Shown here: one piece after another, positions 44,661 to 57,840 of the stretch
Position numbering within the stretch: the stretch's first letter is position 1
Layout of the letters: the number at the start of each line of letters is the position of its first letter
NCBI GenBank assembly: GCA_963745835.1
Contig: CAVUZH010000019.1
Coordinates: 224,001 to 288,000, forward strand
Direction of reading: 5' to 3'
From: an uncultured delta proteobacterium
GTDB taxonomy: Bacteria > Desulfobacterota > Binatia > UBA9968
DNA length: 64,000 bases
Program-made: the position numbers and the translations under genes
Notes under the pieces: model-generated
What the model saw: only the letters and a program-made list of their open reading frames with translations
Told to the model about the DNA's origin: nothing
Database searches by the model: none

Positions 44661-45647
44661 TCACCGCTCCAGCTTGAATAGTGTTCTCACGAAATCTTTG
44701 ACGGCAATCCGCGCTGCGCCCGCCGCTGCCTCGTTGTAGCCGGTGTGCGGGTCGGTTTGAATGCACGGGTCCTTCCAGGAGAAGCGCTCGCCGGATTCGG
44801 CGTGGACTATCGTGCCGAGCGGTTCTTCCTTGAGCTTGCACGCGCGGAAGCTTTGCGAGCCCTTCGAGATCGTCGGAACCTTATTGCCAAGCGGATTATC
44901 AAAGCTGTGATGCGCGTCCGGATACTCGGTCAGCACGGCATCGCGCCCGGCAGCACGCAATCGTTCAAAATAAGCCCGGCACGGCGCCACGGGCGTGTAG
45001 TCGTCGGCCGCGCCGTGAAACTGTCGTATGGGCGCGGCGCCCAGGTCGGTGTCGCCAATATACGTAGCAGAGCAGCCGGCATAAAAGGGAATGTGGGCGA
45101 TGAAAGCAACCCGCGGGTTCCACATCTGCTGAAATCTTTTCATGCTCGAATAGAGTGCCGAGATGCCGCCCAATGAGAACCCCATGATTGCAATCCGCGT
45201 TGGATCGATTCGCGAATGATTCGCCAGCACGTTGAAGGCGCGATAGGCGTCGAGAATGACGCTATACGAGTTGAACTGCCCAAGATTCGTCGAGGTACGA
45301 ACCAGGCCGCGCCCGGAGAAGCTGTCCACCAAAAATGTCGCGATCCCCATCTCGTTGAAAGTCTTTGCCCAGAGTTCGTCGTGTGCATTGGAGCCGGACG
45401 AGTCATGTTGCAGGATGACTGCCGGCAACCGGCCGCTCGCCGCTTGTGGAAAGCGCAGATGGCCCGCGATGGTCACCGGTTTGCCATCTTGGTCGCCGGT
45501 CAAGAACTGCCGCACTGAAACGATGAGCGTCTGAATGGGGTGTACTTCAGTCCGTGCCGCCAGATCTCTCACGCTCGGGTCGGCAACAGCCGCTTGAACC
45601 CACAGAAGGCTAAGAACCAGACAAGCTGCTCGCACTGCGTGTCTCAT
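44661..45647 (-). CDS. Secreted dienelactone hydrolase-like alpha/beta hydrolase
   Basis: GFSLGG, HGAADDY, YPDAHHSFD. Confidence 0.88.
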   Translation of the reverse strand: MRHAVRAACLVLSLLWVQAAVADPSVRDLAARTEVHPIQTLIVSVRQFLTGDQDGKPVTIAGHLRFPQAASGRLPAVILQHDSSGSNAHDELWAKTFNEMGIATFLVDSFSGRGLVRTSTNLGQFNSYSVILDAYRAFNVLANHSRIDPTRIAIMGFSLGGISALYSSMKRFQQMWNPRVAFIAHIPFYAGCSATYIGDTDLGAAPIRQFHGAADDYTPVAPCRAYFERLRAAGRDAVLTEYPDAHHSFDNPLGNKVPTISKGSQSFRACKLKEEPLGTIVHAESGERFSWKDPCIQTDPHTGYNEAAAGAARIAVKDFVRTLFKLER

Positions 45648-45814
45648 GGGCCTCCGATCACGCCAGCAAATGATCTGACGCATGGCGGAGAGTAGCCATT
45701 AAGGAAATCTCATGTCAACTGACTTTTCAAACGCGCCGATCGCGCGCGAGCGGTCCGGCGATCAAGCGGATGAGCATTCGGGAGAGCGACCAGAACCCAA
45801 ATTGATTCGAGCGT

Positions 45815-45912
45815 GGACAGTTTAATAATGAAAGCAGCGCTACCCTCGTGTTGGATGCACTTTGAGGCCGCCGCCGAGCGGCGGAGGTTCGGTTGTAGAG
45901 ATCGCGCCGGTC
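45815..45912 (-). pseudogene. Decayed duplicate of the 3' end of the MBL-GHKL gene (49503-49620)
   Basis: ctaccctcgtgttggatgca shared; KCIQHEGSAAFIIKL vs ECIQHEGSPDFIIRL. Confidence 0.7.
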
Positions 45913-45984
45913 CTTGCCGAAGGCTCTTCAAATCCCCGATTAGATTGCGGCGCAAGTTGCTTGGAGTCGGCGTACCCGGACGTC

Positions 45985-47694
45985 TCAATGTTCGAGATGA
46001 AACTGAACACGACAGCGGCTGTCGATGCGGTCGGACTTGACCCGATCAACGTAGTTCTTTATCAGAAAACCCGCCAGCTTCGCGACCGCACGCTCGTCCT
46101 CCAATAGGTCCTCGGCCGTAGGCCGCTGTCTGGGAAATTCCATAGGCTCGCCATCGTAGCGCATATCGATGTCGAGATTGAACTCATCAAAGCTGACTTC
46201 AGCGTCGATCTTGCCGGTGCTTAGCTCCAACGCCCTTGCGGCTTCGATAAATTCGTTCATCGCGGACTTGGCGCGATCGATGACTTCCCTTCTCGCACCC
46301 CAGACTCCTCCCTGCTTCTCCATGAATAAAAATATTTGCTCTGAAGAGTCCGCATGTGGATCGATTTTCAGCTGCGCGCGCTGCCCGATGCCGATACGAA
46401 ACAAGAGATTCAAGAGCAATGCCGACAAGGTGGCCACCGAAAGCGAGGAGCCAAAAACAGGTAAAAACATGGTGTGAACGGTTTGGTAGACCCCAGGCAA
46501 CATGTCGACGCTCAGGCCCAGAATAATCGAAACTCCCACCACGAATGTCTTGCGAGCATCCATCATACGCGAGGTAAGAATCTGAACTCCGGCAACAATC
46601 ATGAAGCTAGCCGCGAAAAACAGAAGAGCCCCGACCACCGGACTCGGCATGATCGCAAACAATACCGTCAGCTTAGGCACGAAGGCCAAGACAATAAGAA
46701 TTCCGCCGCAAGCAAAACCAATCAGGCGGCTCGTCGCACCGGTCGCGATGGACAGACCGACGTTGGCACTGGAGGTCGACTGTCCCATGGTGCCTACTCC
46801 TCCAGACAAGATCACACCACAAGCATCCGCAAGGAGGCCGCCACTGATAGACTGCATATCCGGCCTCTTCCACTCGGCGTCGTTCACTTTCTGACATGTC
46901 GTCAAATCACCCACGGCCTTAAGTGATGACGCCAACGCCGTTACCAGAAAGGGGATCAGCAACGCGCCGCTAAAGGACCAGCTCTCTCCGGGAAAAGACG
47001 GCAGAGCGAGAAGAGAGGCTTGCTCTAAACGACGTAGGTGTTCATCGGTCACTAGACCACTCGCATAAGCGCAGATCGAGCCAGCAGCGATCCCGATCAA
47101 AACACCATACAACCGAAGCCTCGAGGAGCCCCAGACGGTCACGCCAACCATGACGGCGAAAGTAATGGAAGCGATACTCACCGAGAGCGGATCAATGACC
47201 GCGCGTGAATCCTCGATTCCTAAAAACCTAGAGACCGCTACCGGAATAAGCGCGAGACCAACCATCATCACGATTGTGCCGGTGACTTCGGCCGGGAAAA
47301 AGGGACGGAGACGGCCCATGAGACGAGAGAGCACTACACCGAAAAGACCGCTCACCAGAGTCATTCCCGCCAGCAGCGGCAGGCCGCCCGTCTTGACCGC
47401 CAGAATAGAGGCCGGGATATACAGGGGGTGCACCTGCTGAAGACAGAAAAATCCAGATCCTATAGGGCCATGACGTAGCGTTTGCAGGATGGTCGCAATC
47501 CCCATGACGATCATCGAGGCGTGGATCATCCGTTCCGCCTGCGCGGCAAGGATGCCGGTCTCCTGCAGGAGGATCACCGGGTAAACGAAGGCACTGGACA
47601 AGGCGAGGATATGCTGCAGCCCGAGCAAAAGTGAGGTTGTTAGGGGGGGAATTTCCTCAAGTCCATAAATCAAATTGGCGGGCTTCTTTGCCAC
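45985..47694 (-). CDS. NCS2 (xanthine/uracil permease)-family transporter with a C-terminal degenerate RsbW/HATPase_c_2-like domain
   Basis: LLGLQHIL (TM1 QH), SANVGLSIATG signature, many TMs; ~130-aa soluble tail aligns by eye with the kinase domain of 54098-56431. Confidence 0.85.
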   Translation of the reverse strand: MAKKPANLIYGLEEIPPLTTSLLLGLQHILALSSAFVYPVILLQETGILAAQAERMIHASMIVMGIATILQTLRHGPIGSGFFCLQQVHPLYIPASILAVKTGGLPLLAGMTLVSGLFGVVLSRLMGRLRPFFPAEVTGTIVMMVGLALIPVAVSRFLGIEDSRAVIDPLSVSIASITFAVMVGVTVWGSSRLRLYGVLIGIAAGSICAYASGLVTDEHLRRLEQASLLALPSFPGESWSFSGALLIPFLVTALASSLKAVGDLTTCQKVNDAEWKRPDMQSISGGLLADACGVILSGGVGTMGQSTSSANVGLSIATGATSRLIGFACGGILIVLAFVPKLTVLFAIMPSPVVGALLFFAASFMIVAGVQILTSRMMDARKTFVVGVSIILGLSVDMLPGVYQTVHTMFLPVFGSSLSVATLSALLLNLLFRIGIGQRAQLKIDPHADSSEQIFLFMEKQGGVWGARREVIDRAKSAMNEFIEAARALELSTGKIDAEVSFDEFNLDIDMRYDGEPMEFPRQRPTAEDLLEDERAVAKLAGFLIKNYVDRVKSDRIDSRCRVQFHLEH

Positions 47695-47893
47695 TATCCA
47701 AGCTCTTGGATTGCGCAGCGGCTATAGCGTGACGCGATGAAATATCCACCGTTAAGGATTTTCAGGTACGGGGTCCCTTTGCGCGTGCTCATGCCTTTTT
47801 GTTTCGAGTACAAACGCGCCCTATATTTCAGCGCGTAATCAGAGACAAAAAGAGGCACAAGAACGAAACGGCGCACGATTGCAGATGATGCGA

Positions 47894-48250
47894 TCACTGC
47901 GATGGTGCCAGAGTAGATAGGCCTTCGATTGCCTCGTCGCGCGAGCCGTAAATGAAAATGATGGACGAGAAGCCGGATAAGTCGAACACCTGCCGAATCT
48001 GATCTTGCAGCCCGCACAAGGTAATCTTTCCGTTTGTCGCCTGCAGTCGCTTGGCGGCAAGCAGAAAGACCCGCAGGCCCGAGCTGCTGACGTAATCCAG
48101 CTGAGCAAGGTCGACAACGAGTCTCTGGGCGGCGCCCGAGTCGATCACAGTGAAAATTCTATTCTCGAAGGCTTTTGCTGTCGTGGCATCGAGTTTCCCT
48201 GACAATGCCAATATGACCGCGTCGGCTTTTCTATCTTCACTAATGTCCAT
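47894..48250 (-). CDS. STAS anti-sigma-factor antagonist (RsbV/SpoIIAA-like)
   Basis: GKLD, LVVDLAQLDYVSSSGLR. Confidence 0.92.
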   Translation of the reverse strand: MDISEDRKADAVILALSGKLDATTAKAFENRIFTVIDSGAAQRLVVDLAQLDYVSSSGLRVFLLAAKRLQATNGKITLCGLQDQIRQVFDLSGFSSIIFIYGSRDEAIEGLSTLAPSQ

Positions 48251-48488
48251 GATCTAAGATTGCTGCGTCTTCTGCTTAATGTCCTACACGACCATGTCTC
48301 CAACCTGAGTGCAAGAGTGCGCGGTGTCGTCAACGAGCCGTGCTGGAAACGCTTTTCCACCCCGGCCGTCGACGGCGTATTGCAGGGGCTTAACGAAAAT
48401 GGGCGATGACGGCTGGACTGATCGGCAGCATCGTCGTCAGCTTAGACGGCGGGAAATAGGGAAACTTCGTATCACCGCATCGAGTCGC

Positions 48489-49280
48489 TTACTGGGCTGG
48501 AGCACTCTGTCTAGGATTATATGCCGGGCTCGTTTGGCTTGGATCTCGTTGCACGAGAGACTGGCGTGGATCTTGACGTGGTGAGTTCTCGGCCGACTTT
48601 GGAGTTGTCGGAGACTGGATATAAGGTTCTGCCTGAAAACTTGCTTCGCGCTCGCCTCCGGTCGTGAACCACCAAATTCCCGCAACGATCAGTGCCACCG
48701 CCACAACCGCCGCGGCAATGAAGCTCATGTTAGGACGCGAGCTCGCGCCAATAACTGACGTCGAACTTTGGTTTCGCTGCTCGGGTCTGATCGGTGGCAC
48801 CGCCGCTCTTTGTGGATTGAATATTTTTTCGATGGCCTCGATCAATCGATCTACGTCTGAATGAAATCTCGAGTCGCTTATCTCGATCGCGTTCCTGCGC
48901 GCGAAAGGCTGCAGAGGCTCCGGCAACGACTTCGCCGAGGGCATCTCGGCGTCCGCGAGAAGAACCGGGATGATAACGGTCTTTAGCTCGAGCCCGGCAA
49001 GAATCTCCAAGCGTACAAAATCTTCCGGATTGTCGAGTCGAGGGACGCCGCTTTTGTCGGTCATCTTGATCCACTCTCGTCCGATGAGGACGAGGAGAAC
49101 GCCCGCTTCCGCCACGCTATGATTGATGGCATCGACGAAATCTTGTCCCGGCTCGATTCTGTCGATGTCCATAAAAACATTATGCTCGCCGTATTTCGCC
49201 GCCAGGCGATCATAGATGCGCCCCGCGTAGGCTGCCGTATCTTGGCGTCGGTAGCTTATAAAGATTGATTGCTTAGACAT
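48489..49280 (-). CDS. TIR_2 domain protein with one TM helix and a short low-complexity tail
   Basis: IFISYRRQD, VFMD, DFVRLEI (catalytic-Glu position), IIPVL; TM FIAAAVVAVALIVAGIWWF. Confidence 0.88.
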   Translation of the reverse strand: MSKQSIFISYRRQDTAAYAGRIYDRLAAKYGEHNVFMDIDRIEPGQDFVDAINHSVAEAGVLLVLIGREWIKMTDKSGVPRLDNPEDFVRLEILAGLELKTVIIPVLLADAEMPSAKSLPEPLQPFARRNAIEISDSRFHSDVDRLIEAIEKIFNPQRAAVPPIRPEQRNQSSTSVIGASSRPNMSFIAAAVVAVALIVAGIWWFTTGGEREASFQAEPYIQSPTTPKSAENSPRQDPRQSLVQRDPSQTSPAYNPRQSAPAQ

Positions 49281-49502
49281 GATCAGCCGTATTCCGATTA
49301 TCTTTGGCGAAGGATGTCAACCAAATTTTGCTCATTCGGGTGCGCAGGCCAGCTCTTTCTGACGCGCAAAGAGCAGGAGGAATCGAGCGGTGAGTCGTGC
49401 ACGCACAATTCTCTTTGCGAAGCGAGCGTGCGATCACGCAATCCTGTTAGCGCTAACTCATTTGCCGCGGAGTTCTGGCGTTTTTCTTAGAACCGCTCCG
49501 CT

Positions 49503-51230
49503 TCACATTGTTTTGAGCGCCGGCAGTCTGATGATGAAATCAGGACTACCCTCGTGTTGGATGCATTCGAAGCTGCCGCCGAGCCATCCGAGGGTTCTGT
49601 TGTAAAGATCGAGCCGGCGCTTGCCGAACACAGCCGAATCCATCCGTTCGTGGCTTGATAGTCGAATCTCCACCTGGCCCAATGCCACCTGAGTGGCAAT
49701 GCTGATGTGCTTGACGCCCATTCCGGCCATTCCTTCCATCACGTTGGTCAATATATCGCCGAGCCGCTCCGCCCCGATGTTTGCTTTGGTCTCCTGCGCC
49801 GCCGGCGCAAATTCAAACTGGACATCCCGCAGAGGCGAGTACGCCGCCAGCCGGCGCGTGAGAGCCTGCAGAAAAGATTCATCGTCCACCGCTTCCATCA
49901 GATCAGCGGATTCCATCAACGTGGTTTCCTTGGTCTGCTTCAGTAGCTCCGTTATGATCTCGTTTACGGCTCCCGGTTGCTCCGTCTGGAAAAATTGCAA
50001 GCCGCGCACGAGATTCAAGAAATCTTCTAGCCGCCGCTGGGCCCGATCAACCAGAGAGAGATCGAGGATTTGGCGAACGTTTTCCGCGGCCAGAACTTTT
50101 TGCAATGATCTGGCGACTTGAACGCCTTTGAGCACTACGGTCCATTCGGGCACCGGGCTGCCGTTGAACGCTTCCGCGACACGGCGAAAGTCCGAGAGGA
50201 TGCGGTCGATCTGATCGATATCCAAGCTCTCCAGAATCCGGCTGGCCGCGCCGTCCTCCTCCTCGAGCATGGATAGGCAGTAAGACACCGTGTACAGGCG
50301 CCCGGAGAAGATCGTAAGCAGCGCCGCAGTTTCTTCCAGCAGTTCATCCGCGTAAATTTTAAGAGCGCTAATGCGTCCGGCATCCATGAGCGGTACGTCG
50401 GTCAGATTGGAAGCTTCGGTCTCCATCAACCGGAGCTTCTCGCGCATGCTTTGCGCCGAAACGCAGTAACCGTGCCCGGGGCAACACGCGGTGATCTCGG
50501 GTATTTCCAGGAGCCGATCGACGTTGCGCAGTGTTTGCAGAAGATCTGCGTGGTTCCAGCCGTCGAGGCCGCACACTCCAGGGTTGGCGGCGAACGGCAA
50601 ATCGCCAATCATCAACAACGATCCGATTCTTAACGATATGCTGCACGCCGAATGTCCGGGCGTGTGATAAATCTCAAGCCGATTTCCAGCGCCGACAGAA
50701 AGCCATTGGCGTTGCAGCGTTGCGCCATCGGGCAGCGCCATCGGCTCGGTGTAAAGCTCCAATCGTCGGCCGCCGGACAATTCCAGCGCGGCCGGTTCAG
50801 ACGCCGGGCTGGAAGCGAATAGGATTCCGTCGAATCGCGCCGTGCATATTTCAGGGTTCCATGGATAGAGATAAGCGGTAGTCAGGTTGCGGTCGCGGTG
50901 TTTGAGAGCCTCAACTCCCGACTTGTGCGCGAACCGCTTGACTTCCGTACCGGTGGGAAGTTCAAGACCCGCCTCCTGTGAGTGGTCTTGATGGCAATGG
51001 GTAAGAAATAGGAGGACCGGGCGCTGTGACACTGTCAGTGCGTCGGTTAGAATTCGGCTTATCTGCCGCGTCTGCTCGGCGCTGGCGCCGGGATCGACGA
51101 CCACCAGCGCCTCGGGAGCGGAAAAAATGTAGCAATTCGATGAAACGCAGTTGGCCTTAGGTATGATCGGAAAGATGTCGACGGACGAAGTGCCAGAAAC
51201 TTTCTGCCAAACGTTGGCTTCTATCTTCAT
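49503..51230 (-). CDS. MBL-fold metallohydrolase fused to a helical domain and a degenerate GHKL/HATPase-like C-terminus
   Basis: THCHQDH, HTPGH, GD, PGHG; tail ERLGDILTNV..LGGSF..FIIRLP. Confidence 0.8.
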   Translation of the reverse strand: MKIEANVWQKVSGTSSVDIFPIIPKANCVSSNCYIFSAPEALVVVDPGASAEQTRQISRILTDALTVSQRPVLLFLTHCHQDHSQEAGLELPTGTEVKRFAHKSGVEALKHRDRNLTTAYLYPWNPEICTARFDGILFASSPASEPAALELSGGRRLELYTEPMALPDGATLQRQWLSVGAGNRLEIYHTPGHSACSISLRIGSLLMIGDLPFAANPGVCGLDGWNHADLLQTLRNVDRLLEIPEITACCPGHGYCVSAQSMREKLRLMETEASNLTDVPLMDAGRISALKIYADELLEETAALLTIFSGRLYTVSYCLSMLEEEDGAASRILESLDIDQIDRILSDFRRVAEAFNGSPVPEWTVVLKGVQVARSLQKVLAAENVRQILDLSLVDRAQRRLEDFLNLVRGLQFFQTEQPGAVNEIITELLKQTKETTLMESADLMEAVDDESFLQALTRRLAAYSPLRDVQFEFAPAAQETKANIGAERLGDILTNVMEGMAGMGVKHISIATQVALGQVEIRLSSHERMDSAVFGKRRLDLYNRTLGWLGGSFECIQHEGSPDFIIRLPALKTM

Positions 51231-51272
51231 ACTGTCTCGCGCGCGCCGCAGTCCATGGCCGCGCCTATGGCA

Positions 51273-51587
51273 TCAAGGGCTGACGTCAATGAATGTCGCA
51301 AAGCCGGTGAGATTCAATACGTTCTTAATGGGCAGCGGGACGTTGATAAGTTTCAGGCGTTCGCTGCGTTTTTGCAGCGCCTTTGCCGCCATCAGCAAAG
51401 CGCGCAAGCCGGCGCTGCTCAAATACGAAACCTTCGCCAGATCGAGCTCCACGCCTCCGGCGGAAGTCTCAGTCGCGCGCAACAAGGCCTGTTGCAGCTC
51501 CGGAGCCGTATTACTATCCACGGCGCCGACGACGGAAAGAACAGTCGTCGATTGCGACTGCTGCTCAGTGATTTCCAGTTCCTTCAT
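51273..51587 (-). CDS. STAS anti-sigma-factor antagonist
   Basis: GAVD, LDLAKVSYLSSAGLR. Confidence 0.92.
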   Translation of the reverse strand: MKELEITEQQSQSTTVLSVVGAVDSNTAPELQQALLRATETSAGGVELDLAKVSYLSSAGLRALLMAAKALQKRSERLKLINVPLPIKNVLNLTGFATFIDVSP

Positions 51588-51650
51588 TTCGCGACCCCTT
51601 TTGATTATGGAACTTGGCTTCTTGAAAAATAGATTTGCGAAATTTAACTG

Positions 51651-52961
51651 CTATGGCGCTTGATCTTCAGTTCTTCTCTTCTCTTTTCGTGTTCCAAAGT
51701 ATACTAGGGCAAGAAGGGCGATATCGTCCCATTGTGGCGCTCCAGCGGCATACTGCCTCACGTCGTCGACCAAATCGCCGATGATTTGTCGCGGATAAGA
51801 ACGACGATTGCTCGTCAGGAATCGCGCGAGCCGCCGATCCGAGTACGGTATCTCGTTTGGGTCCATTGCCTCGGTCACCCCATCCGTGTAAAGCAGCAAG
51901 GCCTCGCCAGGCCCGAGAACCATCCGCCCCGACGCATAGGGACTTTGCTTTACCAGTCCCAGAGCCCTACCGCCGAAATTTAACAACGGACTCACGCCGC
52001 TGTGTTGGAGGTGATAAGGCAGGTTGTGCCCACCGTTACTAAAATCGACCTGACCGGTGCTGATATTCAAGATAGCGCAAAAAAGAGTGACGAACATGCA
52101 GGACTCGTTATCGCCACAGATCTCGGCATTCAAGCGCGCGAGGATTTCACCGGGAGTGCCACCGCTGCCGGCGGTCGCTCTGAACAGCGTCTTGGTCACG
52201 GCCATAAAGAGAGACGCGGGCACTCCTTTGCCGGAGACATCGCCGATAGCAAAGCATAGATGATCGTCATCGATAAAGAAAAAATCGTAGAAGTCTCCTC
52301 CCACTTCTTTCGCCGGTGCAATCGAGGCGAAAATGTCGAATTCGTGGCGCTCTGGGAAGGGAGGAAAAATCTTGGGCAGCATACTCATTTGAATGTCGTG
52401 CGCGAGCTTTAGCGCCTCCTCCATCCGCTCCTTCTCGACATAGGCTTCGATCAAGCGGGCCCGCTCCAGCGCTACTGTTATATGAGCACTTAACCCGCCC
52501 AGAAGCGACTCATCGCTTTCATTAAACACTTCTTGGTCTTTCTTGTTCAGCACCTGAATGACGCCGATCAGCTTATCCCCGTTGCCGATCAGAGGCATAC
52601 AGAGAATGCAACGCGTGCGGTAGCCGGTCTCCTTGTCGAACTTTGGATAAAACCTGGCGTCGGCGTAGGTGTCAGGACAGTTAATCGGCGTACGGGTTTT
52701 GGCCACGGTTCCGGCAATGCCGACCCCGAGCGGAACCCGAATTTCCTTTATTTCAAGCCTTTGCGTAGTCTTGCTCCAAAGCTCGTTACGAGATTCGTCA
52801 TAGAGGAAGAGTGAGGCGCGATCCGCGTCCAAGACTTCGGCGGCTTCCTGCACAATCACTTGCAACAGGTCATCCAATCTAATTTCAGTGGCCAAAGCCT
52901 TCGAAACCCTCAAAAAAGCGTTGAGGTTTCGCGTCTGACGTTGGCTATCGCTGAATGTCAT
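51651..52961 (-). CDS. GAF-domain SpoIIE/RsbU-type PP2C phosphatase
   Basis: GAF (GIAG..DTYADARF..LNKK..F..DE); VGGDFYD, GDVSGKG, YTDGVTEA, DDI. Confidence 0.93.
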   Translation of the reverse strand: MTFSDSQRQTRNLNAFLRVSKALATEIRLDDLLQVIVQEAAEVLDADRASLFLYDESRNELWSKTTQRLEIKEIRVPLGVGIAGTVAKTRTPINCPDTYADARFYPKFDKETGYRTRCILCMPLIGNGDKLIGVIQVLNKKDQEVFNESDESLLGGLSAHITVALERARLIEAYVEKERMEEALKLAHDIQMSMLPKIFPPFPERHEFDIFASIAPAKEVGGDFYDFFFIDDDHLCFAIGDVSGKGVPASLFMAVTKTLFRATAGSGGTPGEILARLNAEICGDNESCMFVTLFCAILNISTGQVDFSNGGHNLPYHLQHSGVSPLLNFGGRALGLVKQSPYASGRMVLGPGEALLLYTDGVTEAMDPNEIPYSDRRLARFLTSNRRSYPRQIIGDLVDDVRQYAAGAPQWDDIALLALVYFGTRKEKRRTEDQAP

Positions 52962-53105
52962 TGTGCTTCAGTTTCCCGAAGTAATACCGCGGCGACTTTT
53001 CTGTCTGCGCCAATTTCCATGATCTAAGGCTCCTCTGTCTTCTTTTTATCGGAAATCAGCAGCATAGCCTGAAGCGAGGAGGATTAAACTAAACCCGAAT
53101 AATAG

Positions 53106-53147
53106 CCGCACAAACATAGCGATGTAGAACATCGGATAAGTTCGAGC
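53106..53147. repeat. 42-bp direct repeat with internal palindrome (copy 1)
   Basis: 39/42 identical to 54020-54061; contains CGATGT-AGA-ACATCG. Confidence 0.8.
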
Positions 53148-53199
53148 ACTGCATAGCCTTCCAGAGGCGCGATCTCAGCCGCGACCTGCGCAGCGGTGA

Positions 53200-53564
53200 T
53201 TCTACCCGGCTGCCCGTTAGCCACAGTGTATAGTCTATATACGATTCCGCTTCCAAATAACTCTCGCGAATTTCCGAGTCATAGACCGCCTCCTGCTCGT
53301 CGCGGACCACGTAGAAGAGCCATATTCGCCGGAAATCTCGATTGGTAAGCTCAAAATTAGAGTAACCGACCATATTATGGTGAGCTGTGAAACCGCGCGC
53401 CAAGGCCAGAAGTCGGTTGGAATCTCATCCGGAAATCGGGCTACGATCCAAAGAACGGTCGTGATGATCAGGGAGCCGGTGGTGAGAATCCAACCTGGTC
53501 GCAAGGACTCAAAACTGGGCAAATGCCTGCTAAGAGCATTTCTGAGGATCACGCCTTTATGCAC
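53200..53564 (-). pseudogene. Internally deleted remnant of a possible ferric-reductase-like membrane oxidoreductase
   Basis: N-terminal TM segment joined to an FNR-like piece (IWLFYVVRDEQEAVY). Confidence 0.4.
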
Positions 53565-53630
53565 CCCTCCAGGCGCGGGCCCTTTTTTGACGAGCCGGTC
53601 TATCTGGGATTTAGACTGTATAATTTACGG

Positions 53631-53963
53631 CTAGAGATTCTTGATCGCATCGTCGTCAGAGCCGTAAATGGAAAAAACAGACGAAAACCCGGTTATGTCG
53701 AACACTTCTCTGACTGGACTCTGAAGCGAACAGAACAAGATCTTGCCGTTCGCGCTATTGAGTCGCTTGGCCGCAAGGAGAAACACGCGTAATCCTGAAC
53801 TGCTGATGTAGTCGAGCTGCGCAAGATTGATTACAAAGCGCCGCTCGCCCGATTCTATTTGGCTGAGAAGTTTTTCCTCAAACGTCTTCGCTGTCGTAGC
53901 GTCCAGTTTTCCAGAGAGGCCTAGGGTGACAACGTCCGCAGTTTTGCGTTCGGTAATTTCCAT
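53631..53963 (-). CDS. STAS anti-sigma-factor antagonist
   Basis: GKLD, INLAQLDYISSSGLR; close paralogue of 47894-48250. Confidence 0.92.
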   Translation of the reverse strand: MEITERKTADVVTLGLSGKLDATTAKTFEEKLLSQIESGERRFVINLAQLDYISSSGLRVFLLAAKRLNSANGKILFCSLQSPVREVFDITGFSSVFSIYGSDDDAIKNL

Positions 53964-54019
53964 AACCTAAGTCTCCTATCTCCTCATATCATCAGCACAG
54001 GATTTTCCAGCTCTGGTCA

Positions 54020-54061
54020 CCGCACAAACGTTGCGATGTAGAACATCGGATAAGTTGGAGC
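54020..54061. repeat. 42-bp direct repeat with internal palindrome (copy 2)
   Basis: Partner of 53106-53147. Confidence 0.8.
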
Positions 54062-54097
54062 GCGTGTACCGAAACCTTCTTCGCTAATCTCCATGAC

Positions 54098-56431
54098 CTA
54101 AGCTTTCTGCGTCTTTTTTTTAATCGTCAGCAGATTTCTCTCTCCTTGTCGCTTGTACTCAAGGGCATCCACGATCTTGCGCACAAGATGGATTCCGAGT
54201 CCACCGATCGTCCTTTCGTCCAACAATTTCGCTGTGTCAGGCTCAGGCACATCAAGGGGATTGAAGGGTTGCCCATCATCTTCCACTTCGGCTTTAACCT
54301 CTCCTGCCTGCAAGCTCAGGCGCACTCTGATCTCGTGTTCCCCGCTGTCGGTGTAACCGTAGGAGATAATGTTGGTGAGAATTTCTTCCAGGGCGAGGTT
54401 GAGATCATGCAGGACCTTATCGGATAGTCCAAGTCGGCGGCCGAATTTCGTCAGCGTCTGATTAAAGCGGTCGAGCTCTGAAAGCTTGTTAAAGAGCTTG
54501 ACCTCCACGCGTTCCGTCATTTTCTCCGTGGCCCCGAAATAGCGCAGCGCCAGAACCGTGATATCATCCGATTGCGGCGCTTGGCCAGCGAAATGCCTTA
54601 CATCGCTGACCAAATCGCCAATGATCTGGCGCGGAGCCGAGCTGCGATTCGTTCCTAAGAACTGCTCGAGCCGCTCATCGGAGTAAAGCGTCTTGGCGAG
54701 ATCCATCGCCTCGGTCACGCCATCGGTATAAAGCAGCAAGTCGTCGCCCGGACGAAGAACCATGCGCCCTGTTGCATAGGGGCTTCCCTCCACAAGCCCC
54801 AGGGATATTCCGCCGAAGTTTTCCAAGGGACTAACGCCGTCGCGGCTCAGATAAAACGGCAGATTGTGCCCGGCGTTACTATAATGGACCTCGCCGGTGT
54901 GGATATTCAAGATCCCACAGAAAAAGGTCACGAACATACAGGACTCGTTATCGCGACAAATTTCGGTATTCAACCGCGCGAGGATTTCACCCGGACTGCC
55001 GCCATTGCCGGCGGTCGCGCGAAAGAGAGTTTTGGTGACGGCCATAAACAGCGACGCCGGTACTCCCTTACCGGAGACGTCGCCGACGGCGAAACATAGA
55101 TGATCGTCATCGATGAAGAAGAAATCGTAGAGATCCCCTCCTACCTCTTTGGCCGGTACCAGAGTGGCGAAAATATCGAACTCGCTGCGCTCGGGAAACG
55201 GAGGAAAAATTTTCGGCACCATGCTCATCTGAATATCGTGGGCGATTTGTAGCTCGCTTTCGATGCGTTCCTTCGCCGCGGTGGTTTCCTTGAGGTGCTC
55301 GATGGATTCGTTCAAGCGCCGCGTCATCTCGTTGAACGAGGTCGCAAGAGCGCCAATTTCGTTTTTTGCCGAGATGGCGATTCTTTGAGTGAAGTCACCG
55401 CCTGCGATCCGTCGGGTCATCTCCGTCAAGTCGGCAATGGGCCGGGAAATCGTCTTGGCGCCAAAGATGGCGATCATCGATCCGAGCAACAATACCAACC
55501 CGCTCACCACCATGGCCAACCGAATCCTGTTCTGAATCGCAGCCTGCACGTGATCCGTCGGCAGAGTGACCAGAATTGTTCCACCTTTTAGCTCTCCCCC
55601 CTCTTCGCCGATCGGAACGACGACCTTGAGCAGAGATGCTTCCGAAGAGCTTTCGGTTCGCCCTTCGCGCACCAAGTTGCGCCAATCCGCGAAGTCGGCC
55701 TCGGTCGGCTCCGGAAGCTTGTTGTCTCGGAGCCTCTCCGCATAGTCCACGGTGACCATGTTCTTGTCGAGGACACGGATCGCAATGACGCTTCCGTCGG
55801 ACACCAGCTGGTTGACCAGACGAGTCAGCCCCATGCTCTGCTGCAAGTGTCGGAGCATGGTGGCGTGATAACCGACCTGGACGATGCGCGGCTTATCCAC
55901 CCCCGCGACCCCCACGTACTTGAAAACCTGCGTGTCGATTTCGCGCTGGCGCGCCTCCTGGACGACAGCTTTGCTCTTGCCGGTGAGCAGAGGCCAGAAG
56001 GCGTGAGCCTGGGGTTGCCGCTCCCGATCCGGACTGAACGTGAAGTCTACTTCCGTATTATTTCTTAAGTAAGCATGACCCTTCTCGTCGGTAATCCAGA
56101 TTTCGTCCAGCACCGTGTCGTCGGCAATTTGTTTTAATCGCCGGTTGATTTCCTTCGCGCCGACTCCTGCCGCCTCACCCAGAGCTACCAAATGCGCAGC
56201 GATCGTGGCCTCGACGATCATCTGCTCACCAATCGCTTTCTCGAGATCGCTGGTCACTTGCGCGCCGAAGGCCGCGCTACGAGCCAAGAGCCTGGCGATG
56301 ACCACACCCTGAGCTTCGCTTTCAGCGAGCAATGCCCGGCGCGAGCCCCAAACCACGACTCCCGCGGTGGCGAAGACCGCGACGACGAGCAACAGGGTGA
56401 CCATTAAAAGCGTTTGAGTCTTGATCGTCAC
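54098..56431 (-). CDS. Membrane sensor: TM, Cache-like domain, TM, HAMP, SpoIIE PP2C phosphatase, RsbW-type Ser kinase (HATPase_c_2)
   Basis: AAGGAG RBS then GTG 56431; HAMP (NEIGALATSFNEM); GGDLYD/GDVSGKG/YTDG/DDIT; EEILTNIISYG, EDDG, GGLGIHLV. Confidence 0.92.
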   Translation of the reverse strand: MTIKTQTLLMVTLLLVVAVFATAGVVVWGSRRALLAESEAQGVVIARLLARSAAFGAQVTSDLEKAIGEQMIVEATIAAHLVALGEAAGVGAKEINRRLKQIADDTVLDEIWITDEKGHAYLRNNTEVDFTFSPDRERQPQAHAFWPLLTGKSKAVVQEARQREIDTQVFKYVGVAGVDKPRIVQVGYHATMLRHLQQSMGLTRLVNQLVSDGSVIAIRVLDKNMVTVDYAERLRDNKLPEPTEADFADWRNLVREGRTESSSEASLLKVVVPIGEEGGELKGGTILVTLPTDHVQAAIQNRIRLAMVVSGLVLLLGSMIAIFGAKTISRPIADLTEMTRRIAGGDFTQRIAISAKNEIGALATSFNEMTRRLNESIEHLKETTAAKERIESELQIAHDIQMSMVPKIFPPFPERSEFDIFATLVPAKEVGGDLYDFFFIDDDHLCFAVGDVSGKGVPASLFMAVTKTLFRATAGNGGSPGEILARLNTEICRDNESCMFVTFFCGILNIHTGEVHYSNAGHNLPFYLSRDGVSPLENFGGISLGLVEGSPYATGRMVLRPGDDLLLYTDGVTEAMDLAKTLYSDERLEQFLGTNRSSAPRQIIGDLVSDVRHFAGQAPQSDDITVLALRYFGATEKMTERVEVKLFNKLSELDRFNQTLTKFGRRLGLSDKVLHDLNLALEEILTNIISYGYTDSGEHEIRVRLSLQAGEVKAEVEDDGQPFNPLDVPEPDTAKLLDERTIGGLGIHLVRKIVDALEYKRQGERNLLTIKKKTQKA

Positions 56432-56976
56432 AAGATTTCTCCTTCGCCTTTCATTCGTTCCGGGCCCAGTCAAGCCACATCGCGAATCAAAAAAAAATAG
56501 CCCGATTTTTAAGTGCGACGGCACCAGGTTCAAAACGTTCAATCCGGTCTATCGTCGCTGCGCTATTCAGGACAAGCGCTAGCAAATAATCCTCATTGCG
56601 GGCAAGCGCGAAAACTGGCGCGACTCGGAATCGAGAAAATTGAAAGAGATCTGGAGCCGCTTTCGCGGGTAATGACGGCTGTGAGCGCCGGGATATTCCA
56701 CGGGATTTCTCGAACAGACCAGTACCATCTCGTTTACTCATTCCACTAAGCTCGCGCGTGATTGACACCTCGTCGCTTGAGCGTTATAGGTCGGCTCAGA
56801 AAAGGTTCGTCATGCTTTCTCAGATACAGAGTATGTAAAAACTCAGATCCAAGCTGTTCAAAGAGCTCTTGATGCGCGCCGCGCGACAGGGTCCAGGGTC
56901 AGTACGTCAGCGCGAGGCGGTTGTTGCACGGGGCCTTTTTTGCGGCCTGAATCCCTGCTTAATAGGAGGCAATGTC

Positions 56977-57840
56977 ATGGATAACGTGGAAAGAACCAAA
57001 CCGAAAGACAAGTTCGTTAACGTCGATGGGCTGCAGCTCCGTTATATCGAAGAAGGTTCAGGCCCATCGGTGCTGTTTCTACACGGCGCTTCGCTGGGAA
57101 GCTCGGCGGACGTGTTTCTGCGCAATCTCGGTCCTCTTGCGAAAGCCGGATTTCGTGCGGTCGCCTTTGACCTTCCTGGGTTTGGCCTCTCCGACGTACC
57201 CGCCAAGCAAAGCACGGCGCAGCAACGCAATTCCATTCCTAAATTCATCGATGCCGCGGGATTGGGCAAGACCGCATTGATTGCGCATTCACGCTCCGGC
57301 GGCTTCGCGGTTCAGCTAGCCTTGGAAGATCCCAGCCGCTACTCGCATGTGATCATTCTTGGCACCGGCTCGCTGCTGCCGCCGCAGACCCAGGAGCAGG
57401 TCGGCAAGTACGAAGCGGTCCAGGCGCGCGTCGACAAGGAAATGGCGCAAAAGGAACCGACCCTGGAGGATGCCCGCAAACTCTTGCAGGCCGACACCTT
57501 CAATCATTCGTTGATCTCGGATGAAGACGTGGCGATCCGCCACAGCCGCATGACCGGCCGCAATTTCAAAGCGCATCAGGAACGGCAGAACCAGGATGCC
57601 CCCGCCGGCGGCGGCGCGTCGCAGGCCAAGCCCATATGGCAAAGGCTGACCGAGCTGAAGATGCCGCTTTTGATGTTCTTTGGCCGCGAAGACCGCGCGC
57701 ACGCCGGTGAACGCGCCGAATTGCTTGAAAAAATGCAGCCAGAGATCAATCTCCACATCATCAATGGCTGCAAGCACATGGTGCATTGGGATGCCTTCGA
57801 CGACCTGATGCGCCTGGGCGTGCCTTTTCTGAAGAGCTAG
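56977..57840 (+). CDS. Alpha/beta hydrolase (MhpC-like)
   Basis: FLHGA, DLPGFGLS, AHSRSG, CKHMVH; AGGAGG RBS. Confidence 0.9.
   Translation: MDNVERTKPKDKFVNVDGLQLRYIEEGSGPSVLFLHGASLGSSADVFLRNLGPLAKAGFRAVAFDLPGFGLSDVPAKQSTAQQRNSIPKFIDAAGLGKTALIAHSRSGGFAVQLALEDPSRYSHVIILGTGSLLPPQTQEQVGKYEAVQARVDKEMAQKEPTLEDARKLLQADTFNHSLISDEDVAIRHSRMTGRNFKAHQERQNQDAPAGGGASQAKPIWQRLTELKMPLLMFFGREDRAHAGERAELLEKMQPEINLHIINGCKHMVHWDAFDDLMRLGVPFLKS

Follow-up and report, generated by a model that had tools for sequence, protein, structure and literature searches.

Partner switching is taught as a mechanism of sigma-factor release, and only a handful of outputs other than sigma factors are known for it. The partner switches without a sigma factor include SiaABC-SiaD of Pseudomonas aeruginosa, SypE-SypA of Vibrio fischeri, HsbR-HsbA and BtrUVW of Bordetella, with targets that comprise a diguanylate cyclase, polysaccharide or biofilm machinery, and secretion. 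In the archetypal systems of Bacillus subtilis, RsbU/RsbP-RsbV-RsbW (sigma B) and SpoIIE-SpoIIAA-SpoIIAB (sigma F), a STAS protein with a phosphorylatable serine is combined with a PP2C phosphatase of the SpoIIE family and a serine kinase of the RsbW type. The same three kinds of components occur in a gene cluster of an uncultured delta proteobacterium of the Binatia, located in a 64,000-nucleotide stretch (positions 224,001 to 288,000 of contig CAVUZH010000019.1, assembly GCA_963745835.1; hereafter the window), the minus strand of which carries eight co-oriented open reading frames (ORFs) at 45985–56542. In contrast to the sigma B and sigma F switches, no sigma factor or free anti-sigma factor is present here, kinase and phosphatase are parts of one membrane sensor protein, and the proposed receiver of STAS is a catalytically dead RsbW-like domain on an NCS2 permease. 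In order, the genes encode a HAMP-PP2C-RsbW-kinase sensor, STAS1, a GAF-PP2C phosphatase, STAS2, a metallo-beta-lactamase (MBL) fold hydrolase with a long tail, a TIR protein with a transmembrane (TM) segment, STAS3, and the NCS2 permease with its 140-residue tail (Pfam). On balance, we read the cluster as a partner-switching circuit that has a transporter, rather than an anti-sigma/sigma pair, as its receiver.

The permease tail as a putative RsbW-derived pseudo-kinase

The RsbW-like character that the initial annotation ascribed to the permease tail is borne out by profile comparison, not by Pfam. The tail of the window protein (residues 430–569) has no Pfam match and none to HATPase_c_2 even at E ≤ 10, and 4 of the 37 tails of the family match Pfam HATPase_c_2 weakly, with a best E of 4.3e-4. 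When the 37 tails (alignment A1) were compared by hhalign with 23 RsbW-type kinase domains from related loci, the match had a probability of 96% (E 4.9e-9) over 132 columns; against the kinase domain of the window's own sensor the same alignment gave a probability of 63% (E 7e-5) over 110 columns. Weak reciprocal profile matches are also observed, as the RsbW profile detects the tails of loci L029 and L030 and the tail profile detects a true RsbW in locus L012. A feature-based atlas search also points to clusters bearing HATPase_c_2 and is treated as a lead only. The tail profile gave chance-level matches only when run against the sequences of the PDB (E 0.0016 for a designed spike helical bundle, more than 0.1 for the rest).

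In the registers provided by hhalign, several residues of the ATP site are lost from the tail: the magnesium-binding asparagine is replaced by Ala56, the adenine-binding aspartate by an invariant tyrosine (Tyr84), and the GGLG of the G2 box by L(S/A)GF. The catalytic glutamate is retained as E52. As residues that bind ATP are lost, the tail should no longer bind ATP, and the aligned sequences indicate that it is very probably an RsbW-derived pseudo-kinase. In alignment A1 the tail appears as a compact domain with near-invariant WGAR, FDEFNLD and Y.G motifs, D121, and a terminal LHFxH. None of the near-invariant residues (G33, W36, G37, R39, F73, D74, E75, D121, H137 and H140) belongs to the classic GHKL set, and they may mark a STAS interface or a metal or ligand site.

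A second NCS2 lineage of the same phylum (L122:1996–3786 and L123:5145–6956; 597–604 residues) bears a different degenerate RsbW-like C-terminal domain, which matches the RsbW-kinase profile (E 4e-5 and 1e-4) and not the tail profile; STAS was not found in the fetched flanks. The existence of this lineage suggests that RsbW-like domains became joined to NCS2 permeases more than once, or long ago.

Genomic linkage of the tail to partner-switching genes

A search of 1.84 billion representative proteins with the tail returned 587 clusters (50% identity) at E ≤ 1e-3, in which the matches sit at the extreme C-terminus of proteins of ∼570 residues or in short, probably fragmentary proteins. To place these genes in context, species-representative genomes were scanned with the peptide pattern [SRA]FDE[FY]NL[DG][VI], which gave 259 candidate stretches, 236 of them confirmed. 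The locus survey comprises the best 80 of the 236 confirmed loci, with up to 10 kb fetched on each side, and neighbouring genes were labelled with the proteins of the window and with profiles iterated on the loci themselves. The survey holds 87 tail genes, 55 of which have at least 3 kb on both sides (termed well-flanked). No stand-alone tail gene was found in the 80 loci, where short matches are cut by contig ends or frameshifts. Bacterial hosts of the tail gene belong to the Binatia, Thermodesulfobacteriota (Smithella, Syntrophaceae), Bacillota (including two Sporomusa genomes), Chloroflexota, Acidobacteriota, Nitrospirota, Ignavibacteriota, Armatimonadota, Cloacimonadota, Verrucomicrobiota and the alpha-, beta- and gamma-proteobacteria, and archaeal hosts include at least 10 Methanothrix/Methanotrichaceae records, one of them a closed chromosome, as well as Halobacteria and Methanophagales.

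Among the well-flanked tail genes, a STAS gene lies within 3 kb in 31/55, a PP2C gene within 5 kb in 26/55, and a match to the RsbW profile within 5 kb in 18/55 (in 2 of these 18 the profile matches the tail itself). The density of STAS genes amounts to 9.6 per 100 kb at up to 3 kb from a tail gene versus 1.1 per 100 kb beyond 5 kb, and in 17 loci other than that of the window a STAS gene directly adjoins the tail-bearing permease on the same strand. A neighbourhood survey of this kind had been proposed in the initial annotation; it reveals that linkage of the tail to STAS, PP2C or RsbW genes recurs across many phyla and in archaea (any of the three in 36/55), whereas a STAS, PP2C, RsbW or tail match accompanies 0/20 tail-less NCS2 genes (drawn from 18 genomes of the phylum, with ∼6 kb of flank in either direction). 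The linkage of the tail to partner-switch genes is almost certainly real.

Typical operons illustrate this arrangement. In Methanothrix, including the closed chromosome, the order is STAS, 5TMR_LYT-SpoIIE, HATPase_c_2 and permease with tail, and in Smithella it is 5TMR_LYT-SpoIIE, STAS and permease with tail (both verified with Pfam). A Dehalococcoidales locus has STAS, permease with tail, HATPase_c_2 and HATPase_c_2-GNAT, with a 5TMR_LYT-SpoIIE gene on the opposite strand (Pfam). The fusion of HATPase_c_2 to a GNAT acetyltransferase is found in a Dehalococcoidales metagenome-assembled genome (L012:10793–12382), where it stands beside a stand-alone RsbW-like kinase directly downstream of the tail-bearing permease.

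The linked phosphatases are mostly built as sensors. Domain architectures were determined for 36 of the 43 linked PP2C ORFs, the remaining 7 being near-duplicates or truncated. The predominant form is 5TMR_LYT-SpoIIE (19/36), followed by dCache_2-(HAMP)-SpoIIE (6/36, two with HATPase_c_2), the architecture of the window sensor with an outer domain of no known family, HAMP, SpoIIE and HATPase_c_2 (4/36), and REC-SpoIIE (3/36); cNMP-linked, FHA-linked, HAMP_2-linked and bare forms are represented once each. Sensors of the window's architecture adjoin the NCS2-tail genes in loci L002, L006, L008 and L011.

Predicted docking of STAS on the tail and its consequences

The initial annotation had also suggested that complexes of the STAS proteins with the tails be predicted. 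For STAS3 with the permease tail the outcome is a weak pass: the predicted complex of tail residues 13–140 (alignment A1) with STAS3 (alignment A4) gives an ipSAE of 0.58 (0.56, 0.58 and 0.61 in individual runs) versus 0.00 in each of the three controls. At least 98% of contacts are common to the runs, with a pLDDT of at least 80 for the partner and ∼79–81 for the tail. Of 157 solved complexes, 116 attain the mark used for such scores, as do 2 of 215 mismatched pairs; passes at or below 0.60 include only 18 of the 157 solved complexes and both of the passing mismatches, and the prediction is graded as weak support.

The mechanism that we propose is as follows. The sensor would set the phosphorylation state of STAS, and unphosphorylated STAS would dock on the pseudo-kinase tail as RsbV and SpoIIAA dock on RsbW and SpoIIAB, STAS3 being the proposed ligand and the permease tail the proposed STAS receptor. 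Docking would alter transport, switching it on or off, because the tail directly follows the last transmembrane helix. Since the tail would be unable to phosphorylate its ligand, release of STAS would depend on a separate kinase. The outcome would resemble an SLC26/SulP transporter, but with the STAS domain supplied in trans and switchable. We regard docking of STAS on the permease tail, to control transport, as the probable mode of action, with moderate confidence. The wider possibility that phospho-switchable STAS proteins, docking on a fused, dead RsbW domain, post-translationally gate SLC23-fold transporters of a large class that is so far unannotated, in archaea as well as bacteria, is put forward tentatively, at slightly less than even confidence. 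The initial annotation had extended gating by the STAS state through pseudo-kinase domains to two effectors; for the transporter this is well supported by tail homology and conserved gene order, and weakly by the complex score, and for the hydrolase the case is weak, its tail being like that of a histidine kinase and 0/7 of its distant homologues being linked to switch genes (see below).

Several observations weigh against gating of the transporter. Neighbours coding for STAS, PP2C or RsbW are absent from 19/55 well-flanked tail genes, the neighbours of which are varied, and from both tail-bearing genes of the same-phylum sample (L120 and L121; 2/2). In approximately half of the loci with linked STAS, a 5-kb radius contains no gene for an RsbW-type kinase, so that STAS has no evident kinase there. 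One Sporomusa locus without switch neighbours has an ECF-type sigma factor downstream. The most conserved residues of the tail (WGAR, FDEFNLD, LHFxH) have no explanation in the model, and the single-sequence AlphaFold model of the tail is poor (pLDDT 48), too low for a fold search. The score of the tail with STAS3 is a weak pass, and complexes of an RsbW-type kinase with STAS, of the SpoIIAB-SpoIIAA type, have already been solved; the predicted complex may reflect likeness to these rather than binding. Finally, the linkage survey relies on one peptide pattern and on profiles built from the same loci, and is a biased sample. The locus-built profiles missed the STAS proteins of the genome's own stressosome that Pfam finds, and the linkage counts are therefore lower bounds.

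Two other gene contexts count on the same side. In loci L045, L051, L059, L060 and L062, which are of the Smithella type and have no switch neighbours, the permease comes directly after a gene of ∼1400 codons for a BcrAD/BadFG ATPase + DUF2229 ‘CoA enzyme activase’, and this neighbour recurs as a different setting for the tail-bearing permease. In the Cloacimonadota loci L063, L068, L071 and L075, which are outside the 19, the tail-bearing permease comes directly after a REC-GAF-PAS-GGDEF diguanylate cyclase. Locus L068 also has dCache_2-SpoIIE and STAS genes ∼7 kb downstream of the permease.

Organization of the gene cluster

All eight genes were found where the initial annotation had placed them, co-oriented on the minus strand (Table 1), with the one amendment that its start of the sensor at 56431 is an internal GTG and the full ORF reaches 56542. 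The components of a partner switch are present in the form of STAS proteins with a conserved serine, two SpoIIE domains and one HATPase_c_2 domain with intact motifs.

Table 1. Genes of the cluster and domains of the permease protein, with coordinates in the window
Feature	Length (residues)	Position	Strand	Family matches and remarks
Membrane sensor	814	54098–56542	−	Pfam: HAMP 362–412; SpoIIE 478–668 (E 1.4e-51); HATPase_c_2 687–809 (E 1.3e-26)
STAS1	110	53631–53963	−	Pfam STAS (E 1.8e-21); TIGR00377 84.8 bits, above cut-off
GAF-SpoIIE, cytoplasmic PP2C phosphatase	436	51651–52961	−	Pfam GAF (E 1e-21), SpoIIE (E 1.5e-46)
STAS2	104	51273–51587	−	Pfam STAS
MBL-fold hydrolase with tail	575	49503–51230	−	Pfam Lactamase_B at 28–238 only
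TIR-TM protein	263	48489–49280	−	Pfam TIR_2 (E 4.3e-14); one hydrophobic C-terminal segment
STAS3	118	47894–48250	−	Pfam STAS (E 2.8e-22); directly upstream of permease
NCS2 permease	569	45985–47694	−	Pfam Xan_ur_permease 21–399 only (E 7e-57)
Permease domain (NCS2/SLC23 fold) of the 569-residue protein		46408–47694	−	Xan_ur_permease
C-terminal tail of permease (residues 430–569)	140	45988–46407	−	RsbW/HATPase_c_2-derived by profile comparison (putative)

The kinase domain of the sensor keeps the E..N, DDG and GGLG motifs, as read in its translation, and looks active; the sensor is likely both the writer and the eraser of STAS phosphorylation. The GAF-PP2C phosphatase is described here as the second input of the switch. 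The designation of the sensor's outer domain as Cache-like is not confirmed, as residues ∼55–347 gave no match in Pfam up to E 5. In two Armatimonadota loci, the corresponding sensors have dCache_2 at the position of the outer domain.

In agreement with the initial annotation, the phospho-acceptor motif is kept in all three STAS proteins, reading DYISSSGLR in STAS1, SYLSSAGLR in STAS2 and DYVSSSGLR in STAS3. Residues S55, S56 and R60 show no variation among 20 STAS sequences aligned from the window and related loci, and we take the phospho-acceptor serine to be the counterpart of Ser58 of SpoIIAA. STAS1, a single-domain protein of the anti-sigma-antagonist type, is 63% identical to STAS3, and the divergent STAS2 is 30% identical to it.

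The genes are separated by gaps of 42–669 bp. The largest of these, at 52962–53630 between STAS1 and the GAF-PP2C gene, contains only small ORFs without family matches (53089–53403 and 53235–53564), and could be an internal promoter region or hold an unrecognised small gene. Neither promoters (9 versus 5.8 ± 2.5 in shuffled sequence) nor terminators (15 versus 12 ± 3.6) exceed expectation in the scans made, and an Rfam scan of 45000–57500 gave 0 matches at E ≤ 1, with no riboswitch pointing to a substrate.

The MBL hydrolase, STAS2 and the TIR gene

The MBL domain of the hydrolase keeps the HCHQDH motif. Its tail was studied with alignment A3 (residues 271–575; 16 sequences, including nine diverged homologues at 19–26% identity). 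AlphaFold models the tail (305 residues) with a pLDDT of 82 and a pTM of 0.80, with a long helical bundle that leads into an alpha/beta sandwich. The top matches of this model in a Foldseek search of the PDB are exclusively histidine kinases (DHp-CA) and PDK-type kinases (E 5e-7 to 2e-5), the best being 5c93_B (E 5e-7, probability 1.00), and 277 matches are obtained at E ≤ 1e-3, with whole-model TM values of only 0.32–0.38. The tail has no Pfam kinase match at E ≤ 10; alignment A3 contains no invariant or near-invariant histidine, and no DxGxG is readable in the aligned tails. As modelled, the MBL tail is a degenerate histidine-kinase-like DHp-CA module and is not RsbW-like. The earlier reading of this tail as GHKL-like is consequently upheld at the level of the fold and not as regards the RsbW type, since the fold is that of a histidine-kinase DHp-CA module.

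These results bear on the further proposal that STAS also docks on the degenerate kinase-like tail of the hydrolase and so gates this enzyme, which we consider unlikely. The DHp-CA-like fold of the tail and the position of the MBL gene between STAS2 and the TIR gene speak for such gating, as does the STAS tree, in which STAS2, L001_1823 and L008_12914 form a distinct long-branched clade (100/99), each member of which precedes an MBL-tail gene (3/3 clusters). The fold matches, however, are to histidine kinases, the partners of which are receiver domains, rather than to RsbW-type proteins. A sample of 400 other genomes of the phylum contains the MBL-tail family in 7 cases, and the neighbourhood survey that had been suggested for it turned out negative, with STAS, PP2C or RsbW within ∼7–8 kb in 0/7 of these distant homologues; gating of the hydrolase would therefore draw solely on gene order in a few related clusters. 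Within the locus survey the MBL-tail protein occurs in 4/80 loci (L001, L007 as a fragment, L008 and L066). A division of the STAS tree into ‘permease-adjacent’ and ‘phosphatase-adjacent’ sequences was also considered and rejected, as the two are not separated (10 changes each) and the tree largely follows taxonomy; the clade of STAS2 and its MBL-linked counterparts is the sole group to stand out.

Among the 80 loci, the TIR gene is found only in the near-identical relative L001. Compared with Thoeris models, its product scores 47 bits with ThcB4 against a cut-off of 220 and matches the PADLOC ThsB model (E 3.8e-11) over 60 residues only; no ThsA-like gene was present among the neighbours scanned. 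Assignment of the cluster to a defence system was rejected, as PADLOC gave only weak TIR matches, below cut-offs. From its distribution, the TIR gene is treated as a probable lineage-specific passenger of the cluster. The genes for the MBL-pseudo-histidine-kinase and the TIR protein are regarded as lineage-specific additions, with a possible tie to the switch that is suggested only by gene order.

Alternative explanations

The STAS proteins might not touch the transporter at all, in which case the tail would serve the permease in dimerisation, ligand binding or stability, and the switch would act elsewhere and be linked to the permease through a response to a common substrate. We hold this to be rather unlikely. 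The near-invariant, non-GHKL residues of the tail could indeed form a ligand or metal site, 19/55 tail genes are without switch neighbours, and the score of the tail with STAS3 passes only weakly. Nevertheless, several phyla have minimal three-gene modules of PP2C, STAS and permease with tail, in which no further candidate target is present; the tail descends from the only family of domains known to bind STAS; and linkage is seen for 0/20 of the NCS2 genes that lack the tail.

In a second alternative the transporter itself is the sensor, a ‘transceptor’ in which the transport state tunes the sequestration of STAS by the tail, with outputs elsewhere, such as the MBL-pseudo-kinase protein. The window encodes three STAS proteins along with another protein that has a degenerate GHKL domain, and so has more STAS proteins than obvious receivers, which is consistent with this, as is the co-occurrence of STAS2 with the MBL-tail gene in 3/3 clusters. 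This alternative is improbable, however, as most linked loci have no MBL-tail gene (present in only 4/80 loci) or other candidate output, and the linked phosphatases carry membrane or extracytoplasmic sensor domains of their own (5TMR_LYT in 19/36, dCache_2 in 6/36).

That the tail is instead a membrane-tethered anti-sigma factor, holding a sigma factor or other transcription factor until STAS releases it as RsbV frees sigma B from RsbW, is most improbable. The tail is indeed homologous to RsbW-type anti-sigma kinases, and 19 sigma-70-family matches exist elsewhere in its own genome. However, Methanothrix is an archaeon and devoid of sigma factors, and yet it has the tail alongside STAS, PP2C and a kinase of the RsbW type; the window and its contig are free of sigma-factor genes; and sigma-70 domains are found in only 1/50 scanned neighbours of tail genes (L014).

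Sigma factors and anti-sigma partners in the genome

The genome assembly that contains the window amounts to 7.28 Mb and is 97% complete with 9% contamination. The initial annotation had noted that the window contains neither a sigma factor nor a stand-alone anti-sigma factor, and this extends to the whole contig: of the 19 matches to sigma-70 region 2 in the genome, 0 are on the window's contig, and the only HATPase_c_2 match of the contig is the sensor. In the genome as a whole, HATPase_c_2 matches above the cut-off comprise the sensor, three proteins of one cluster on contig 25 and a larger protein on contig 13 (a 425-residue frame, 29.5 bits). The sole small stand-alone HATPase_c_2 protein among them is the RsbT of a stressosome-like cluster, and a stand-alone RsbW partner was not found in the genome by the HATPase_c_2 profile search. 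The sigma-70 match nearest to any HATPase_c_2 match is on contig 24, ∼3 kb from a weak, sub-threshold match in a 377-residue frame. Both matches of the genome to the profile for SpoIIE-type PP2C fall in the cluster described here. Archaea have no sigma factors, and Methanothrix keeps an operon of STAS, PP2C, kinase and permease with tail; the output there is therefore not a sigma factor.

Two further STAS loci of the same genome were noted. The stressosome-like cluster of contig 25 (L096:4461–9506, plus strand) encodes RsbRD_N-STAS, STAS, a 136-residue RsbT-like kinase, HATPase_c_2-SpoIIE, and a 762-residue hybrid histidine kinase with HATPase_c_2, HisKA, HATPase_c and REC domains; no sigma factor lies beside it, and a PAS-HisKA protein and a sigma-54 activator are encoded upstream. 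On contig 15 (175357–175719; L097:5355–5717, minus strand), a gene for a STAS protein of 120 residues (Pfam E 8e-16) is situated between mraZ and rsmH/mraW, at the head of a dcw cell-division cluster (MraZ, STAS, MraW, FtsL, PBP, MurE).

The permease domain and its cargo

The match to PF00860 (Xan_ur_permease) spans model positions 3–386 of 389, and the closest solved structures are those of UapA (E 3.7e-17), SLC23A1 and UraA (E 7e-10). The protein scores below the curated cut-offs of the nucleobase models (TIGR03173 pbuX, 250.9 versus 414 bits; ncs2, 190.8 versus 291.8). The TM8 glutamate of UapA aligns with Lys259, and this position is lysine in 23/40 and aspartate in 7/40 full-length members of the family. 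In the NAT motif (residues 310–311) the first position is Ser/Ala, and the Gln/Glu/Pro is replaced by Ala/Ser. The automatic name ‘xanthine permease XanP’, assigned by several sources, is doubtful for this permease because the glutamate of the substrate site is a lysine and the NAT signature is altered, and these substitutions suggest that the cargo is probably not a canonical nucleobase.

Sensors of the 5TMR_LYT and sCache_2/dCache_2 types have a preference for carboxylates. As the linked sensors are mostly of the 5TMR_LYT or dCache_2 type and the acidic TM8 residue is replaced by lysine, one may speculate that the permease carries a small anion, for instance a C2–C3 carboxylate, instead of a nucleobase. 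Methanothrix is reported to have AceP homologues for acetate (PMC10598746), and acetate is not pressed as the cargo of the permease in Methanothrix given that these homologues are already present.

Comparison with known systems

In a literature search that left most subscription journals outside its range, neither an NCS2 permease bearing an RsbW-like tail nor a partner switch directed at a transporter of this kind was found to be described. The passages of a review on STAS domains that were consulted (PMC8256260) mention neither permeases nor pseudokinases.

Should the transporter be the receiver, the cluster would let an extracytoplasmic sensor act on solute flux directly, rapidly and at the post-translational level. 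A function would be gained for a 140-residue domain that is unannotated in hundreds of protein clusters labelled ‘xanthine permease’, and the STAS, PP2C and RsbW genes of sigma-less archaea such as Methanothrix would acquire a plausible target. The regulatory logics of SLC23 and SLC26 would also be linked, the in-cis pairing of STAS and transporter being re-created in trans. The hosts include Methanothrix and the syntrophic Smithella/Syntrophaceae, which are central to methanogenic carbon flow, and this makes the substrate worth finding.

Among the partner switches without a sigma factor, SypE combines an RsbW-like kinase and a PP2C domain in one protein, like the sensor of the window, and the sensor also matches the NCBIfam model of SiaA weakly, far below its cut-off. 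Common to these systems and the present cluster is control of a target other than a sigma factor by the phosphorylation state of STAS; here the target would be a transporter with a fused pseudo-RsbW domain. With the NCS2/NAT proteins UraA, UapA, XanQ/PbuX and SLC23 the permease shares the Xan_ur_permease domain, from which it differs in its altered TM8 glutamate and NAT motif and in the extra tail of 140 residues.

Association of STAS with transporters is itself not without precedent. In the MlaFEDB system (PMC7367683), the STAS protein MlaB binds and regulates MlaF, a subunit of that ABC transporter; there the STAS protein sits on the transporter, whereas in the present cluster the transporter carries the domain that would bind STAS. 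The SLC26/SulP transporters have in common with the permease a 7+7 inverted-repeat fold, related to that of NCS2/SLC23, and a cytoplasmic STAS module. In SLC26/SulP the STAS domain is fused at the C-terminus, whereas here the tail is RsbW-like and the STAS domains are separate, phosphorylatable proteins accompanied by a kinase and phosphatases. We infer that what is new in this cluster is the inverse of SLC26, namely a dead STAS-binding domain fused to an SLC23-fold permease, with STAS free and switchable.

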